Virus record (IMG/VR): IMGVR_UViG_2693429508_000009
Direction: 5' to 3' (one strand)
DNA length: 7,885 nt
From: a virus
Taxonomy: Duplodnaviria > Heunggongvirae > Uroviricota > Caudoviricetes
Shown one piece after another: positions 2 through 7,111 of the stretch (its first letter is position 1; each line of letters begins with the position of its first letter). The translations under genes were made by a program, and so were the position numbers. The notes under the pieces were generated by a model that was not told the origin of the DNA, ran no database searches, and was given only the letters and a program-made list of their open reading frames with translations.

Positions 2-250
2 TGCTTAAAAAAAGAACAAATGGTAGTGTCCGCTATTGCCAGTACACCTCATCCATCACCGAAAAAAATTGGCTTTTACACCATTGGCGATAAAAGCATT
101 TACCTGTATGACCTACGCCGCATGGATGAAATCATGGAGGCTCTTGATAATCGTTCGTCGATGGATTGGTGTGTTGCTGTTCATGATATGAATGCAGGGT
201 TTGATGAAAAGATTTTGTTCCCCTCATCAGTTGAAAGCACTGCGGGTTAA
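2..250 (+). CDS. 3' end of a phage early-region protein of unknown function (frame open to the window edge; first in-window ATG at 20)
   Basis: Reading frame is open from position 2 to TAA at 248-250. The stop is followed 10 nt later by the next gene, whose SD (AAGGAG 249-254) overlaps it, i.e. operon-style packing. No family recognised. Confidence 0.4.
   Translation, partial: CLKKEQMVVSAIASTPHPSPKKIGFYTIGDKSIYLYDLRRMDEIMEALDNRSSMDWCVAVHDMNAGFDEKILFPSSVESTAG
21..51. repeat. left copy of a 31-bp perfect inverted repeat (partner 7855-7885)
   Basis: TGGTAGTGTCCGCTATTGCCAGTACACCTCA at 21-51 is the exact reverse complement of 7855-7885. The match stops at 52/7854 on the inside and is cut by the window edge on the outside. 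Confidence 0.9.
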
Positions 251-260
251 GGAGTAACAC

Positions 261-428
261 ATGACCACTATTACCAAAGAACGTATTGAATTGTTCATTA
301 AAAACCCGCTTGAAAACGGGCTTACCCGTGGTGAACAAATGGAACTGGCACGGATTGCGCTGGCATCGCTGGAAGCAGAGCCGGTTGTGTTCTGGTTTGA
401 AAAATATCAAGAAGGGGCTACGGCATGA
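261..428 (+). CDS. small hypothetical protein (55 aa), paralogous to the N-terminal part of the following ORF
   Basis: ATG 261 preceded by AAGGAG at good spacing; 55 codons to TGA 426-428, which overlaps ATG 425 of the next gene (ATGA). Missing from the ORF track only because it is under 60 aa. Shares the MTT.T.E start and an I-A-L-x-S-L-x-A-E-P motif with ORF 425-769. Confidence 0.5.
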
Positions 429-769
429 CGACTTTTACCAGAGAGCAGTTAATAGCTCACGCAGAGGAGACTATTGAAGCACAGAGACTGTGCATACCGG
501 GCACAATCGACCATGACATCATCCGCACATATAAGATGGATATTGCTGTTCTGGAAATCGCACTGGTATCGCTGGCAGCAGAGCCAGCCGGTAAATTGCA
601 TGAATACAAACCAGTGGGATATCAGCGTCTGGTCGATGAGTTAACCATGCTGGTAAAGCAGTTAACCTGGCAACTGAGGAAAGCGAAGCCAGACTGCAAA
701 TTACCGGATAAGGCGATGAGTTATCTGGAGCGGAACGGACTGATAAGCGTGGAGGATATTTTACGATGA
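425..769 (+). CDS. hypothetical phage protein (114 aa)
   Basis: ORF-track ORF with ATG overlapping the upstream stop (ATGA at 425-428); its own stop TGA 767-769 overlaps ATG 766 of a downstream mini-ORF. Protein-like composition; family not recognised. Confidence 0.55.
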
Positions 770-849
770 CCTGGCCTGAAGCATTAACAACGGTAGGAAT
801 TGCGATGGCGGTGGCGCTGGTGGTGTATTCGATTTGCCGCTGGGGATAA
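766..849 (+). CDS. possible 27-aa hydrophobic peptide ([27 protein letters not shown]), translationally coupled to the upstream gene
   Basis: ATG 766-768 overlaps the TGA 767-769 of the upstream ORF; 27 codons to TAA 847-849. Central stretch is long enough for one transmembrane helix. Too short for independent statistical support. Confidence 0.3.
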
Positions 850-1060
850 AAACGGTTTGCGGGAAAAGGAGAGTTAAGTAGAATTGCAGCGGGTGCTTGA
901 GGCTATCTGTCTCAGGCATGAACACCAAAAGGCAGATAGAGAAAAGCCCCAGTTAACATTACGCGTCCGGCAAGACGCTTAACATTAATCTGAGGCTCAA
1001 TCTATGAACGGCAAATCTAGGTTAGCCTCTTACGTGCCGAAAGGCAAGGAGAAGCAGGCT

Positions 1061-1216
1061 ATGAAGCAGCAAAAGGCGATGTTAATCGCCCTGATCGTCA
1101 TCTGTTTAACCGTCATAGTGACGGCACTGGTAACGAGGAAAGACCTCTGCGAGGTACGAATTCGAACCGGCCAGACGGAGGTCGCTGTCTTCACAGCTTA
1201 CGAACCTGAGGAGTAA
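1061..1216 (+). CDS. hokD: Hok/Gef-family type I toxin (51 aa small membrane toxin)
   Basis: Translation MKQQKAMLIALIVICLTVIVTALVTRKDLCEVRIRTGQTEVAVFTAYEPEE has the Hok/Gef hallmarks: N-terminal TM helix, TRK(D/S)LCE motif, conserved C-terminal region. It matches my recollection of E. coli HokD/RelF. SD GGAG at 1048-1051. An in-frame upstream ATG at 1004, also with a GAGG SD, would give the 70-aa ORF in the track. Family call is firm; exact paralogue is from memory. Confidence 0.85.
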   Translation: MKQQKAMLIALIVICLTVIVTALVTRKDLCEVRIRTGQTEVAVFTAYEPEE

Positions 1217-2043: not shown

Positions 2044-3102
2044 GTGCGGGTATTACTTCGACCTGTTCTGGTACCGGAACTCGGTCTGGTTATCGTTAAG
2101 CCAGGCCGTGAATCAATGTCAGCATTCCATAACGGCAGAATACTGGTGGAGCCGGAACCAAAAAGCATGCGTAATCTGCCGTCCGGGGTCGTTCCTGCCG
2201 CTCGCCAGCCGCTGGTGGAAGACAAAACATTGCTGCCGTTTTTCAGTAACGCACGGGTGATTCGTGCTGCTGGTGGTGCTGGTGCATTGTCTGACTGGCT
2301 GTTGCGCCATATTAAATCCTGCCAGTGGCCACACGGCGATTATCATCACAGCGAAACCGTCATTCACCGTTATGGTACCGGCGCAATGGTGTTGTGCTGG
2401 CACTGCGACAACCAGCTGCGTGACCAGACATCCGAATCACTCGAGCAACTTGCTCATCAAAACCTGTCAGCATGGATGATTGACGTCATCGGTCACGCAA
2501 TAAGCGGTACGCAGGAGCGTGAATTATCTCTGGCTGAATTATCCTGGTGGGCGGTCCGCAATCAGGTGGCGGACGCGCTACCGGAAGCGGTATTACGTCG
2601 TTCGCTGGGGTTGCGTGCGGAAAAAATTCGCTCTGTGTACAGTGAAAGCGACATCATACCGGGAGAGCAGACAGCCACCAGCATACTGAAGCAGCGCACA
2701 AAAAATATTGCGTTACTGCCTCACGTCCACCAGCAACAGAACCCACCACAGGAAAAGACGGTGGTCAGCATTGCCGTTGATCCGGAGTCACCGGCTCAGT
2801 ATCTCCAGCGCCAGAAATCACAACGGGAAGAGATGCCTGTATACACGCGCTGGGTAAAAACGCAGAAATGCATGACGTGTGGCAATCAGGCAGATGATCC
2901 GCATCACATCATTGGTCATGGACTGGGAGGGATGGGAACAAAGGCTGATGATTTGTTTGTTATTCCGTTATGCCGTAAATGCCGTAACGAACTACATGCC
3001 GGAGTAAAAGATTTTGAAGAGAAACACGGCAGTCAGCTGTTGTTGCTGATTCGTTTTTTAATGCACGCGAGAAATTCGGGTGTTCTGAAGTGGAAAGCAT
3101 AA
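2044..3102 (+). CDS. DUF968-like prophage protein (YdfU-like) with C-terminal HNH-like Cys/His motif
   Basis: 352-codon ORF from GTG 2044 (strong SD GGAGG 2034-2038), with a possible alternative ATG start at 2116. C-terminal region reads C-x2-C ... D-P-H-H ... C-x2-C ... H (CMTCGNQADDPHHIIGHG ... LCRKCRNELHAG), a beta-beta-alpha-Me/HNH-like pattern. Immediately followed by rusA (TAA 3100-3102, ATG 3103). Confidence 0.65.
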   Translation: MRVLLRPVLVPELGLVIVKPGRESMSAFHNGRILVEPEPKSMRNLPSGVVPAARQPLVEDKTLLPFFSNARVIRAAGGAGALSDWLLRHIKSCQWPHGDYHHSETVIHRYGTGAMVLCWHCDNQLRDQTSESLEQLAHQNLSAWMIDVIGHAISGTQERELSLAELSWWAVRNQVADALPEAVLRRSLGLRAEKIRSVYSESDIIPGEQTATSILKQRTKNIALLPHVHQQQNPPQEKTVVSIAVDPESPAQYLQRQKSQREEMPVYTRWVKTQKCMTCGNQADDPHHIIGHGLGGMGTKADDLFVIPLCRKCRNELHAGVKDFEEKHGSQLLLLIRFLMHARNSGVLKWKA

Positions 3103-3483
3103 ATGACCGAGCGCATAGAATTTGTTTTACCTTACCCGCCGACGGTGAACACTTACTGGCGTCGTCGTGGCAGCACATATTTTGTATCAAAAGCCGGGGA
3201 GCGTTATCGCCGGGCAGTGGCGCTTATTGTTCGCCAGCAGCGGCTGAAATTAAGCCTGTCCGGAAGGTTGGCAATAAAAATTATTGCAGAACCACCGGAT
3301 AAGCGCCGCCGTGACCTGGACAATATTCTGAAAGCGCCGCTGGATGCGCTGACGCATGCGGGGTTGCTAATGGACGATGAGCAGTTTGATGAAATCAATA
3401 TCGTTCGTGCTCAGCCAGTATCTGGTGGACGTCTGGGGGTGAAGATTTATCCCATAATGCTTGAAGGGCAGGTCAAAAAATGA
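3103..3483 (+). CDS. rusA: Holliday junction resolvase RusA (copy 1, 126 aa)
   Basis: Translation shows RusA hallmarks: LPYPPTVNTYWRRR near the N-terminus, the acidic RRRDLDN motif, LMDDEQF and GGRLGV. Stop TGA 3481-3483 overlaps the ATG 3480 of a Q-like start. Confidence 0.9.
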   Translation: MTERIEFVLPYPPTVNTYWRRRGSTYFVSKAGERYRRAVALIVRQQRLKLSLSGRLAIKIIAEPPDKRRRDLDNILKAPLDALTHAGLLMDDEQFDEINIVRAQPVSGGRLGVKIYPIMLEGQVKK

Positions 3484-3623
3484 AACTGGAAGATTTACCG
3501 AAATACTACTCCCCAAAATCCCCCGGCCTGACTGATGCATCGGCCTCAACGTCGAAAGATGCGCTGAGTATCACTGATGTGATGGCCGCGCAGGGCATGA
3601 CACAGAATCGGGCTGAGATGGGG
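3480..3623 (+). pseudogene. 5' fragment (48 codons) of a Q-like antiterminator gene, truncated at the single N at 3624; probably a contig end, not a biological truncation
   Basis: MKLEDLPKYYSPKSPGLTDASASTSKDALSITDVMAAQGMTQNRAEMG matches the N-terminus of the complete Q ORF at 4433-5287 with only a few substitutions. The sequence after the N (3625 onward) is unrelated. Confidence 0.6.
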
Positions 3624-3804: not shown

Positions 3805-4062
3805 TTGAACAACCAGACAATGACTTTTACCCCTGAACAATTGCGTAAACACGCGCAGGAAATGCTGCGTCATGCTGAACAACTCGAAAAAACGGGCATA
3901 ACAAAAGACGCTATCCGTAAAGATATGGTACCCGCGCTTCGGGAACTGATGCAGGCGAAGCATCGCGCACAGAAAGCAGTAGATGAGCTGGTGGACTGTG
4001 TGGCAGAGCTGGAAACCAGAGTCGGAAAGTTTGAAAAACTGGTGCAGGAGGTGCTGCGCTGA
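3805..4062 (+). CDS. hypothetical phage protein (85 aa from TTG 3805; 80 aa if ATG 3820), likely helical
   Basis: GGAG at 3793-3796 is 8 nt upstream of TTG 3805. Stop TGA 4060-4062 overlaps ATG 4062 of rusA copy 2 (TGATG coupling). Charged, heptad-like composition. Confidence 0.5.
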   Translation: MNNQTMTFTPEQLRKHAQEMLRHAEQLEKTGITKDAIRKDMVPALRELMQAKHRAQKAVDELVDCVAELETRVGKFEKLVQEVLR

Positions 4063-4436
4063 TGCGCCATGAGTTTATTTTACCTTATCCGCCGACGGTG
4101 AATACTTACTGGCGACGTCGTGACAACACATATTTTGTATCAAAAGCCGGTGAGCGTTATCGCCGGGATGTGGCGCTTATTGTCCGTCAGCAGCGACTGA
4201 AATTAAGCCTGTCCGGAAGACTGGCGATAAAGATTATTGCAGAGCCACCGGATAAGCGCCGTCGTGACCTGGACAATATCCTGAAAGCACCACTGGATGC
4301 ACTGACACATGCGGGAGTGTTAATGGACGATGAGCAGTTTGATGAAATCAATATCGTTCGTGGTCAGCCAGTATCTGGTGGACGTCTGGGGGTGAAGATT
4401 TACCCCATAATGCATGAAGAGCAGGTCAAAAAATGA
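4062..4436 (+). CDS. rusA: Holliday junction resolvase RusA (copy 2, 124 aa)
   Basis: Same RusA motifs as copy 1. By eye roughly 90 percent identical at protein level, with differences clustered at the N-terminus plus scattered substitutions. ATGA overlap with Q at 4433-4436. Confidence 0.9.
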   Translation: MRHEFILPYPPTVNTYWRRRDNTYFVSKAGERYRRDVALIVRQQRLKLSLSGRLAIKIIAEPPDKRRRDLDNILKAPLDALTHAGVLMDDEQFDEINIVRGQPVSGGRLGVKIYPIMHEEQVKK

Positions 4437-5287
4437 AACTGGAAGATTTACCGAAATACTACTCCCCAAAATCCCCTTGCCTGACCGATGCATCGGCCTC
4501 AACGTCAAAAGATGCGCTGAGTATCACTGATGTGATGGCCGCGCAGGGCATGACACAGAATCGGGCTGAGATGGGGGTTTCTGCGTTCCTTGGGAAAATG
4601 GGCATTAGTATGAATGACAGAGAGCGGGCAACAGAATTGCTGACAGAATATGCACTCAGTCGGTGTGATCGCGTGGCGGCGTTAAGAAAACTCCCGGCAG
4701 AAATAAAACCGGCAGTGATGCGTATTATGGCTTCGTATGCGTTTGAAGATTATGCCCGTAGCGCGGCGAGCAAAAAACAGTGCCCCTGCTGTCACGGAAA
4801 AAAATTTATTGAAAGCGAGGTTTTTACAAACAAGATCCAGTATCCGGATGGTAAGCCGCCGGTATGGGCAAAGTGTACGAAAGGTGTGTATCCGTCTTAC
4901 TGGGAAGAATGGAAAAAAGTCAGGGAGGTGGTAAAAGTTGCCTGTCCGGAGTGTGGCGGAAAGGGTGAGGTTTCCACCGCCTGTAAGGATTGCCGTGGGC
5001 GTGGTGTCGCCATTCATCGTGAAGAGTCGGTAAAACGTGGTATGCCTGTTATCAGAGACTGCCAGCGTTGTGGTGGTCGTGGCTATGAAAGACTACCATC
5101 AACGGAGGCATTTAATGCTATATGCGAGGTGACAAACCAGATAACACGCGCGTCATGGGAAAAAACAGTTAAGAAATTTTATGATGCGCTGGTGACCCGG
5201 TTTGATATTGAAGAAGCATGGGCTGAGCGGCAGTTAAAAAAGGTAACTAGGTTGATTTTTCCGGAATCTGTGGTAAATTCGTCATAA
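4433..5287 (+). CDS. Q: late-gene antiterminator Q (lambdoid Q family) with a DnaJ-like cysteine-rich zinc-finger region
   Basis: Positioned directly after rusA and directly before a pR'-like promoter, a terminator and phage tRNAs. N-terminus MKLEDLPKYYSPKSP resembles E. coli prophage Q-like proteins as I recall them. Contains three perfect CxxCxGxG repeats (CPECGGKG, CKDCRGRG, CQRCGGRG) and one degenerate repeat (CPCCHGKK). Confidence 0.75.
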   Translation: MKLEDLPKYYSPKSPCLTDASASTSKDALSITDVMAAQGMTQNRAEMGVSAFLGKMGISMNDRERATELLTEYALSRCDRVAALRKLPAEIKPAVMRIMASYAFEDYARSAASKKQCPCCHGKKFIESEVFTNKIQYPDGKPPVWAKCTKGVYPSYWEEWKKVREVVKVACPECGGKGEVSTACKDCRGRGVAIHREESVKRGMPVIRDCQRCGGRGYERLPSTEAFNAICEVTNQITRASWEKTVKKFYDALVTRFDIEEAWAERQLKKVTRLIFPESVVNSS

Positions 5288-5389: not shown

Positions 5390-5465
5390 GGCCCTTTAGC
5401 TCAGTGGTGAGAGCGAGCGACTCATAATCGCCAGGTCGCTGGTTCAAATCCAGCAAGGGCCACCA
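5390..5465 (+). tRNA. ileZ: tRNA-Ile (anticodon CAU; presumably lysidine-modified, reads AUA)
   Basis: 76 nt. 7-bp acceptor stem GGCCCTT/AAGGGCC, D-arm AGCTCAGTGGTGAGAGC, anticodon loop CTCATAA, T-arm GGTTCAAATCC, discriminator A plus encoded CCA. Very close to E. coli tRNA-Ile2 (ileX) as recalled. The symbol follows the Stx-phage convention and is not verified. Confidence 0.9.
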
Positions 5466-5565: not shown

Positions 5566-5642
5566 GCGTTGTTAGCTCAGCCGGACAGAGCAATTGCCTT
5601 CTAAGCAATCGGTCACTGGTTCGAATCCAGTACAGCGCGCCA
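5566..5642 (+). tRNA. tRNA-Arg (anticodon UCU, reads rare AGA/AGG)
   Basis: 77 nt. Acceptor stem GCGTTGT/ACAGCGC with one G-U pair, anticodon loop CTTCTAA (UCU), T-arm ACTGG-TTCGAAT-CCAGT, discriminator G plus CCA. argN/argO-like, as in Stx phages. Confidence 0.9.
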
Positions 5643-6291: not shown

Positions 6292-6503
6292 NNNNNNNNN
6301 NNNNNNNNNNNNNNNNNNNNNNNNNNNNNNNNNNNNNNNNNNNNNNNNNNNNNNNNNNNNNNNNNNNNNNNNNNNNNNNNNNNNNNNNNNNNNNNNNNNN
6401 NNNNNNNNNNNNNNNNNNNNNNNNNNNNNNNNNNNNNNNNNNNNNNNNNNNNNNNNNNNNNNNNNNNNNNNNNNNNNNNNNNNNNNNNNNNNNNNNNNNN
6501 NNN
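6292..6503. other. assembly gap (run of N); single N at 3624 and 5 N at 6607-6611 are further joins
   Basis: Unresolved bases in the sequence itself. Confidence 0.95.
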
Positions 6504-6577
6504 CCCTTTAGCTCAGTGGTGAGAGCGAGCGACTCATAATCGCCAGGTCGCTGGTTCAAATCCAGCAAGGGCCACCA
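6502..6577 (+). tRNA. second tRNA-Ile(CAU) copy on a small placed fragment (first 2 nt masked by N)
   Basis: 6504-6577 is identical to the tRNA at 5392-5465. The 3' flank (6578-6606) differs from the first copy's flank at three positions, so this is a paralogous copy, probably from another prophage, inserted between the gaps. Confidence 0.7.
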
Positions 6578-6611
6578 TCACATACCGCCATTAGCTCATC
6601 AGGAAANNNNN

Positions 6612-6869: not shown

Positions 6870-7076
6870 GAGAAATTTTTAAATACTTCACAATTCAGGC
6901 GGTTGACTGTTGTCTGGTTTGCGGGGAGTTTGTTAAAAGAAACTGGCATGGTGAATCCCCCTGTGCGGAGGGGCAATCAGCGAGTAGGTATATGGGATAA
7001 TCGCGGATTCAGGTGCTGGTACTGAATTCACCGGGAGGCACCCGGCACCATGCAATGGCACATAGCGCCACTCTCC

Positions 7077-7111
7077 AGCCCCTCTCCGGAGGGGCTGTTT
7101 ATATTGATTTT
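7077..7111 (+). terminator. stem-loop with U-rich tail (probable + strand terminator closing the tRNA/cargo transcript)
   Basis: AGCCCCT (7077-7083), loop CTCCGG, AGGGGCT (7090-7096), followed by GTTTATATTGATTTT. Confidence 0.5.

Follow-up and report, generated by a model that had tools for sequence, protein, structure and literature searches.

Introduction

The inner membrane of Escherichia coli contains a functional class of small single-pass regulators, among them AcrZ, KdpF, MgtS, MgrB, PmrR and CydX, that do not constitute one homologous family. Proteins of the AcrZ, KdpF and MgtS class have 25-50 residues, one helix, no cleavable signal peptide and small-xxx-small motifs, and they bind larger membrane proteins; small membrane proteins are systematically missed by annotation, and those of this class have often escaped the annotation pipelines. 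Bacteriophages also encode accessory, non-essential inner-membrane proteins, such as SieB and RexB of lambda, Imm and Sp of T4 and gp15 of HK97; these are far bigger proteins, in many cases with more than one transmembrane segment, and as exclusion or modulation proteins are expressed from the repressed prophage. Here we analyze a 7,885 nt stretch of DNA from a Caudoviricetes virus (IMG/VR record IMGVR_UViG_2693429508_000009; the whole stretch is called the window below) in which three small open reading frames (ORFs), here called ORF1, ORF2 and ORF3, overlap one another at positions 261-849 (Table 1). We conclude that the last of them, the 84 nt ORF3, is very probably a real, selected and translated gene for a 27 amino acid (aa) membrane peptide.

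The peptide resembles the AcrZ/KdpF/MgtS class in its size and single predicted helix and has no sequence relationship to it; it differs in being borne by phages and phage-plasmids and in being coupled to an upstream gene. PHROG and PADLOC searches detected no homology between it and SieB, RexB, Imm, Sp or gp15, and unlike the situation with those proteins nothing in this locus indicates expression in the lysogen. ORF1 and ORF2 are like the Eaa/Ea22/DUF550/DUF551 proteins in their N-terminal module and their mosaicism, and in phages 933W and VT1-Sakai the peptide cistron follows genes of that type; the genes studied here differ from the Eaa/Ea22 region in lying between P and nin (the rightward region) and not between exo and xis. 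Domain-swapping mosaicism of Ea22 and DUF551 proteins in lambda and Shiga toxin (Stx) phages, and a pro-lysogenic effect of Ea22, have been described (PMC10834534, PMC7093339); these papers do not mention ORF1, ORF2 or the peptide, and the word "membrane" does not occur in them.

Results and Discussion

ORF3 is probably conserved for its protein product

Chance alone could readily leave 27 codons open behind an ATGA junction, and it is the comparative evidence that makes ORF3 more than chance. Copies of the 84 nt module were collected by an exact DNA anchor in the promoter of the neighboring hok gene, by a degenerate ORF pattern and by tblastn. The 33 nt hok-promoter anchor is independent of the ORF and gave an unbiased set of 123 IMG/VR loci, 2 of which are too short to assess; the module is present upstream of the promoter in 99 of the other 121. 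Its frame is intact in 93 of these 99, and 2 further hok-anchored loci have an in-frame 6 nt deletion. The 43 distinct substitution alleles that this set contains in the 84 nt are distributed 9/9/25 over codon positions 1, 2 and 3 (chi-square p = 0.0026), 18 of the 43 are synonymous where about 12 are expected (p = 0.03), and the replacements mostly exchange one hydrophobic residue for another. The other five frames are without such a bias, except for an antisense frame that uses the same wobble positions and holds no ORF of 20 aa or more. A 55 aa antisense ORF at 761-928 was considered as a real gene and rejected, because there the same substitutions would be 8 synonymous, 31 non-synonymous and 3 stop changes.

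Exactly 27 codons are kept in the window, in phages 933W and VT1-Sakai, in the lytic phage Av-05 and in a copy on an IncY plasmid, and frame 0 is the sole frame that is open in all four diverged copies. Comparison of the window with Av-05 finds 12 synonymous and 6 non-synonymous differences (synonymous rate dS ~1.2, non-synonymous rate dN 0.11, dN/dS 0.09, Fisher p = 2.6e-5), and across the comparisons with Av-05 dN/dS is 0.09-0.14 with dS > 1, dN ~0.11-0.18 and Fisher p from 2.6e-5 to 2.7e-4.

Could the 84 nt be kept instead for a reason that resides in the DNA or RNA, as an upstream element of the hok promoter, a termination spacer or a recombination junction, or could they be a decaying relic? 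Their 3' half is very uniform in nucleotide sequence among hok-linked copies, some copies are frameshifted or contain stops, and RefSeq rarely calls the ORF, as such an explanation would have it. We judge it very improbable, however, since synonymous change is saturating relative to Av-05 in spite of a preserved protein, the Shine-Dalgarno sequence, the start codon, the length and the place of the stop have all been retained, and neither the antisense ORF nor the other frames have a coding signature. The module is also found in many hok-free contexts; for this reason, and because the hok leader starts only at position 891, conservation of ORF3 as part of the hok locus was rejected as well.

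Several observations nonetheless weigh against a selected and translated ORF3. Close prophage copies show moderate constraint (dN/dS ~0.4-0.6), and in the 14 codons that the search pattern left free the position bias, 15/15/24, is not significant alone (p = 0.22). The frame is disrupted in ~6% of the hok-linked copies (by a 1 nt deletion in 3 loci, TGA at Trp-3 in 2, and a 1 nt deletion near the end in 1), nonsense changes at Trp-3 arose at least twice, as TGA (IMG/VR loci L021 and L073) and as TAG in phage POCJ13 (L126, 1507-1509), and the replacement W3R (TGG to CGG) is tolerated in 6 loci. Full-text literature searches and the supplements of two small-ORF studies yielded no ribosome-profiling or proteomic match to the peptide and nothing else relevant to its sequence. 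The Trp-3 codon (window 772-774) is a hot spot, which may mean that loss of the peptide is tolerated or that an internal start such as Met14 is used. Frameshifts or stops in the homologs had been named as evidence that would speak against the original prediction of a single-helix membrane peptide gene at this site; most homologs are intact, and about 6 of the 99 hok-anchored loci and POCJ13 are disrupted. ORF3, with its conserved frame, behaves like a translated gene whose product is a membrane peptide of one helix, as had been predicted.

A hydrophobic peptide with a single predicted helix

The 19-residue Kyte-Doolittle mean is 2.16 for the window peptide and 2.0-2.3 across four diverged variants, compared to a classical transmembrane threshold of ~1.6. 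The predicted transmembrane span covers approximately residues 6-24 (the best segment is 7-24 in all four variants), and each of the four is predicted to have a single helix in fewer than 50 residues. The N-terminal cap has the form M-(T/S/N)-W-P-E-A-(F/L) and the C-terminal cap the form Y21-S22-x-(C/F)-R25-W26-G27; the packing motif between them is G11xxxA15, and within the unbiased set neither of its two small residues varies in protein sequence. Glu5 and Arg25 are the only charged residues, except that 933W also has Arg at position 27, and the location of an acidic residue before the helix and a basic one after it suggests, by the positive-inside rule, an N-out/C-in orientation. The peptide matches no family in Pfam, NCBIfam, PHROG or PADLOC. 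Its best PHROG match is a weak one to phrog_4612, a family of unknown function (E = 0.011-0.019 for the 27 aa forms and 0.0035 for a 45 aa extended form), and the KdpF model gives E = 0.12 and 12.5 bits, compared with a cut-off of 26.85.

Shortness, hydrophobicity and a single helix are also properties of the Hok/Gef, TisB, DinQ, Ibs and ShoB type I toxins, and ORF3 might encode a membrane-damaging toxin or viroporin-like oligomer, in the style of a type I toxin or pinholin, that is made when the early operon is on and depolarizes or permeabilizes the host. The sequence has small residues at positions 11, 13, 15 and 17, which form two GxxxA-like faces and make self-association possible, it has a weak likeness to the glycine-zipper family DUF883_C (E = 0.029, below cut-off), and hok adjoins it in the window and in the 99 of 121 loci anchored on the hok promoter sequence. 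We nevertheless consider a toxin of this kind unlikely. The peptide matches no toxin family, including Hok/Gef in Pfam, NCBIfam and PADLOC, and the genuine hok is a separate gene (Table 1). For ORF3 we found neither an antisense RNA nor a leader like mok nor control by mRNA fold-back (the only Rfam antitoxin match starts at 891, past the peptide stop), and in place of a dedicated antisense RNA or structured 5' leader it has a strong GGAGG and is coupled to the gene upstream. Many type I toxins typically have a charged tail, which the peptide lacks, and hok is downstream in only 27 of the 86 loci that the ORF-pattern scan added. The resemblance to small toxin or modulator pairs and to superinfection-exclusion peptides that had been noted for this locus is likewise not borne out by any match in PADLOC, Pfam, NCBIfam or PHROG.

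The 84 nt cistron as a portable unit

The start codon of ORF3 overlaps the upstream stop codon in 157 of 165 copies, 138 of them as ATGA and 19 as TGATG, and GGAGG is located 7 or 10 nt before the start codon in 149 of the 165. The genes to which it is joined in this way are of at least six kinds, encoding "VEDILR" C-module proteins (below), DUF551 proteins, L0139 of 933W and gp123 of Av-05 and also, according to annotations of E. coli genomes and plasmids, a methyltransferase and a protein with a dATP/dGTP pyrophosphohydrolase domain. The proteins upstream of the 165 copies form many clusters; homology begins at the ribosome-binding site and ATG behind at least four unrelated upstream C-termini (...VEDILR, ...PLPEPPQEVNQ in DUF551 proteins, ...KNIEQEVNR and ...KKKGMNQ), and it stops at the TAA or TGA stop codon, beyond which there are more than 15 different downstream contexts. 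Several of these contexts, read by eye, are terminator-like a few bases past the stop, for example AAAAACCCCGG...CCGGGGTTTTT, and in the hok-free contexts L127 (4341-4385), L130, L143, L151, L157 and L174 a strong hairpin and T-run follow ~5-15 nt past the peptide stop; the peptide is therefore often the last cistron of its operon. What comes straight after the cistron is in most cases a terminator-like hairpin, a further gene or the hok promoter, and the cistron itself always stands at the far end of an "ea" accessory operon. In lambdoid phages, mosaic boundaries that fall on a ribosome-binding site at one end and a stop codon at the other are classic for a gene-sized mosaic unit, and judged from these junctions the 84 nt cistron is a portable terminal unit that moves behind Eaa-class genes.

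The regular overlap raises a second alternative, that the upstream Eaa-class protein has in the peptide a dedicated anchor or partner in the membrane, with the coupling serving to match their synthesis. The frequency of the stop/start overlap (above) is in keeping with this, as is the presence of the same N-terminal module in at least 35 of 82 unique upstream proteins, among them that of the very distant lytic phage Av-05. Yet the C-modules of the upstream proteins are of at least four unrelated types, some upstream proteins (clusters u2, u4 and u77) do not have the N-terminal module, outside its predicted helix the peptide has only ~5 residues at the N-terminus and 3 at the C-terminus, which offer little surface to a soluble domain, and linkage alone in mosaic phage DNA would explain the co-occurrence. 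We think a dedicated partner decidedly unlikely, and the specific pairing of a membrane peptide with a soluble partner that the original prediction envisaged does not agree with a peptide that follows at least six kinds of gene and precedes more than 15 different sequences.

Taken together, we regard as probable that ORF3 is a portable, Eaa-linked cistron for an inner-membrane peptide that is made early and acts by helix packing. The peptide would be translated by termination-reinitiation coupling, aided by its own GGAGG, and because ORF3 has no visible promoter of its own it would be expressed in lytic growth as part of the early operon. It would insert into the inner membrane with Glu5 outside and Arg25 inside, and the invariant G11xxxA15 face would pack against a host or phage membrane protein, much as the small E. 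coli regulators do. Whether it works as a binder or modulator of transmembrane helices, and not by membrane damage, is to our minds evenly balanced. A more specific and rather doubtful idea is that it is a phage "transmembrane decoy", the G11xxxA15 face of which would bind a specific host inner-membrane protein early and so shift the choice between lysis and lysogeny or the way in which an infection ends; its target may be FtsH or another protease, a defense or abortive-infection effector anchored in the membrane, or Hok itself. If that were true, it would give the first molecular handle on the Eaa/Ea22/DUF551 accessory regions of Shiga toxin phages and P1-like plasmids.

Distribution and annotation of the peptide gene

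The 84 nt module is present in 1634 of 5426 complete E. coli genomes (~30%), in up to 7 copies per genome and roughly 3100 E. coli copies altogether. Among phages, 933W has an unannotated copy behind L0139, VT1-Sakai has one behind H0068 and before xis with no hok nearby, the Shiga toxin phage VT2-Sakai also carries the module, and in the lytic Vequintavirinae phage Av-05 it fills a gap between two annotated genes. On a P1-type IncY plasmid it exactly fills an 82 nt annotation gap. A tblastn search with the peptide matched 196 plasmid records, 166 of them from Escherichia, 29 from Salmonella and 1 from Klebsiella. Most of these plasmids have a size of ~90-120 kb, and 188 are non-mobilizable; the single one inspected is of the P1-type group IncY. 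When the strict pattern was applied to one genome per species only E. coli and Shigella flexneri were found, and the Salmonella and Klebsiella copies come from the plasmid and phage collections.

In E. coli 042, where the region is identical, RefSeq leaves 766-849 blank; NCBI and UniRef contain entries with precisely the sequence of the window peptide under the name "putative prophage protein" (from the original E. coli 042 annotation and others). NCBI also holds 45 and 52 aa upstream-extended forms (the 45 aa form in RefSeq; e.g. WP_423274943.1), which we rejected as the true gene; they occur only in the DUF551 context and the window has no upstream in-frame start, and for these reasons the 27 aa core is the common unit. 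In phage vB_EcoS-689R5 (L001, 3714-3824) the peptide ORF has lost 1 nt behind its ATG and is frameshifted, and the annotated 36 aa product is in the wrong frame.

The peptide is very probably a genuine, uncharacterised small phage membrane protein that is widespread and almost never annotated. Addition of its gene would close a gap in the maps of medically important phages and might reveal a host-modulating peptide; should it prove inert, it would still be a clean example of a portable 84 nt cistron with boundaries at the ribosome-binding site and stop codon.

ORF1 and ORF2

All three ORFs and both ATGA overlaps have precisely the positions that had been given for them, and the paralogy that had been proposed for ORF1 and ORF2 is confirmed in their N-terminal ~54 residues only (BLASTP E = 1e-5, 33% identity). 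Both match phrog_60, phrog_660, phrog_3323 and phrog_5117, all of unknown function; the match of ORF1 to phrog_3323 has E = 1.3e-19 and to phrog_60 E = 4e-18, and that of ORF2 to phrog_660 has E = 8e-43. The shared region is a module (the N-module) that starts with M(T/S)T(I/F)T.E... and ends in an IALxSLxAEP-type motif in both proteins. A hidden Markov model (HMM) of it gives E = 2e-17 for ORF1 and 2e-28 for ORF2; window-type sequences were part of that model, and the BLASTP value and common PHROG families support membership independently of it.

The first ~42 residues of ORF1 recur among database homologs as the N-termini of proteins named Eaa or DUF550- or DUF551-containing, and DUF551 proteins of 260-300 aa begin with an ORF1-type N-module. 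ORF1 is such an Eaa/DUF550/DUF551-type N-module alone with a 13-residue tail, and ORF2 consists of a variant N-module (residues 6-52), a disordered linker (56-62) and a C-terminal module. Alignment of the relatives of ORF2 finds different N-modules fused to one C-terminal module, and one protein, P0031, joins the N-module of ORF1 to the C-terminal part of ORF2, from which we take the N-termini of ORF1 and ORF2 to be interchangeable alleles of one module. The AlphaFold2 model of ORF2 (mean predicted local distance difference test score 74.8, ~90 for residues 11-50) has the same division into a confident helical hairpin (6-52) that ends at the IALxSLxAEP motif, a disordered linker (56-62) and a helical C-terminal part that is less confident.

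Neither ORF1 nor ORF2 has a match at E <= 1 in Pfam and NCBIfam (including DUF551 PF04448, DUF550 PF04447, Ead_Ea22 and the NCBIfam ead/Ea22-like models) or to any PADLOC model, and comparison of the ORF2 structure with the PDB by Foldseek (best E = 0.96) and of its sequence by phmmer (best E = 0.41) gave nothing informative. With proteins that carry the curated domains they share only the N-module and, in the case of ORF2, the C-module. By these alignments ORF1 and ORF2 appear to be two members of the mosaic Eaa/Ea22/DUF551 class that share an exchangeable N-terminal helical-hairpin module, and what had been proposed as a recurring small-protein family of the nin region is really this module of widespread proteins. 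We also considered that ORF1 and ORF2, or ORF2 and the peptide, are one frameshifted gene; fused forms exist (P0001, P0002, P0024 and P0011) and are rare single-cluster variants, and the idea was rejected. One of them, P0011 (143 aa), is a rare E. coli variant in which the 114 aa protein is joined to the peptide by a frameshift.

The neighboring hok/sok locus

Positions 891-1216 are a complete hok/sok-type type I toxin-antitoxin locus, 42 nt downstream of the peptide gene; it is an optional neighbor and lies outside the trio. Its inferred promoter begins 8 nt past the peptide stop, which is the 3' limit of the peptide module. There is no terminator between the peptide gene and hok, so read-through from the upstream operon would enter hok.

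ORF 3805-4062 and the two rusA genes

The original prediction also grouped with ORF1 and ORF2 a small ORF at 3805-4062 that is coupled to the second of two rusA copies. Its one-base overlap with rusA copy 2 is as described, and it has a weak likeness to ORF2 (BLASTP E = 6e-4 over 33 aa, a single N-terminal helix); it has no similarity to ORF1, the N-module HMM matches only its positions 2-35 (E = 0.0017), and the IALxSLxAEP-type motif is absent, so that the whole module is not there. Among PHROG families it best matches phrog_2565 (residues 121-203 of 204) and phrog_2539, both of ~200 aa, and in each of them the C-terminal third. Since phrog_2565 is matched only in this last part, the ORF resembles a gene fragment, and it is better read as a probable leftover of the rearrangement that made the second rusA copy. 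The two rusA copies are 92.5% identical over 491 nt (blocks 3111-3600 and 4064-4553), and the pair looks like a recombination or duplication scar.

Organization of the window

The features of the window are collected in Table 1. The region around the trio is in essence the same sequence as in a lambdoid prophage that E. coli 042 and many other strains carry, and the gene order in 042 is O-like and P replication genes, small accessory genes including the trio, hokD, the DUF968 gene, rusA and the Q antiterminator gene. The trio at 261-849 forms the distal end of a string of early accessory ("ea-type") genes in a lambdoid prophage. The K-12 Rac prophage region, the only K-12 prophage examined, does not have an ea-type string.

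Table 1. Positions of features in the 7,885 nt window
Feature	Position	Strand	Size or sequence	Basis or remark
Upstream ORF	20-250		76 aa	phrog_1714, E = 5e-37
Shine-Dalgarno-like site of ORF1	249-254	+	AAGGAG	6 nt before ORF1 start; read from sequence
ORF1	261-428	+	55 aa	ORF listing; RefSeq hypothetical WP_000207997.1
Shine-Dalgarno-like site of ORF2	412-417	+	AAGGGG	7 nt before ORF2 start; read from sequence
ORF1/ORF2 stop/start overlap	425-428		ATGA	read from sequence
ORF2	425-769	+	114 aa	ORF listing; RefSeq hypothetical WP_000206826.1
Shine-Dalgarno site of ORF3	751-755	+	GGAGG	10 nt before ORF3 ATG, within 3' end of ORF2; read from sequence
ORF2/ORF3 stop/start overlap	766-769		ATGA	read from sequence
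ORF3	766-849	+	27 aa	predicted single-pass membrane peptide
hok promoter (inferred)	857-884	+	TTGCGG, 16 nt spacer, TAGAAT	from position of hok leader; not listed by consensus scan
hok mRNA leader and Sok target	891-1066	+		Rfam RF01794, 112 bits
mok	1004-1216	+		mokW in homologous records
hok	1061-1216	+		hokD or hokW in homologous records
Terminator-like site	1285-1302
DUF968/YdfU-like gene	2044-3102			precedes rusA copy 1
rusA copy 1	3103-3483
Masked (N)	3624		1 base
ORF 3805-4062	3805-4062		85 aa	probable gene fragment
rusA copy 2	4062-4436
Q antiterminator	4433-5287			after rusA copy 2
tRNA calls	5390-5462, 5566-5639, 6502-6574
Masked (N)	6292-6503		212 bases	within tRNA region
Masked (N)	6607-6611		5 bases	within tRNA region
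STnc100	6917-7106			Rfam RF02076, 132 bits

The 76 aa ORF upstream of the trio ends 10 nt before ORF1 and belongs to the same accessory string. Three tRNA genes are called in the region that contains the longer runs of N, and further tRNA genes may hide in the masked stretch. Downstream of the Q/tRNA region there is a strong match to the small RNA STnc100.

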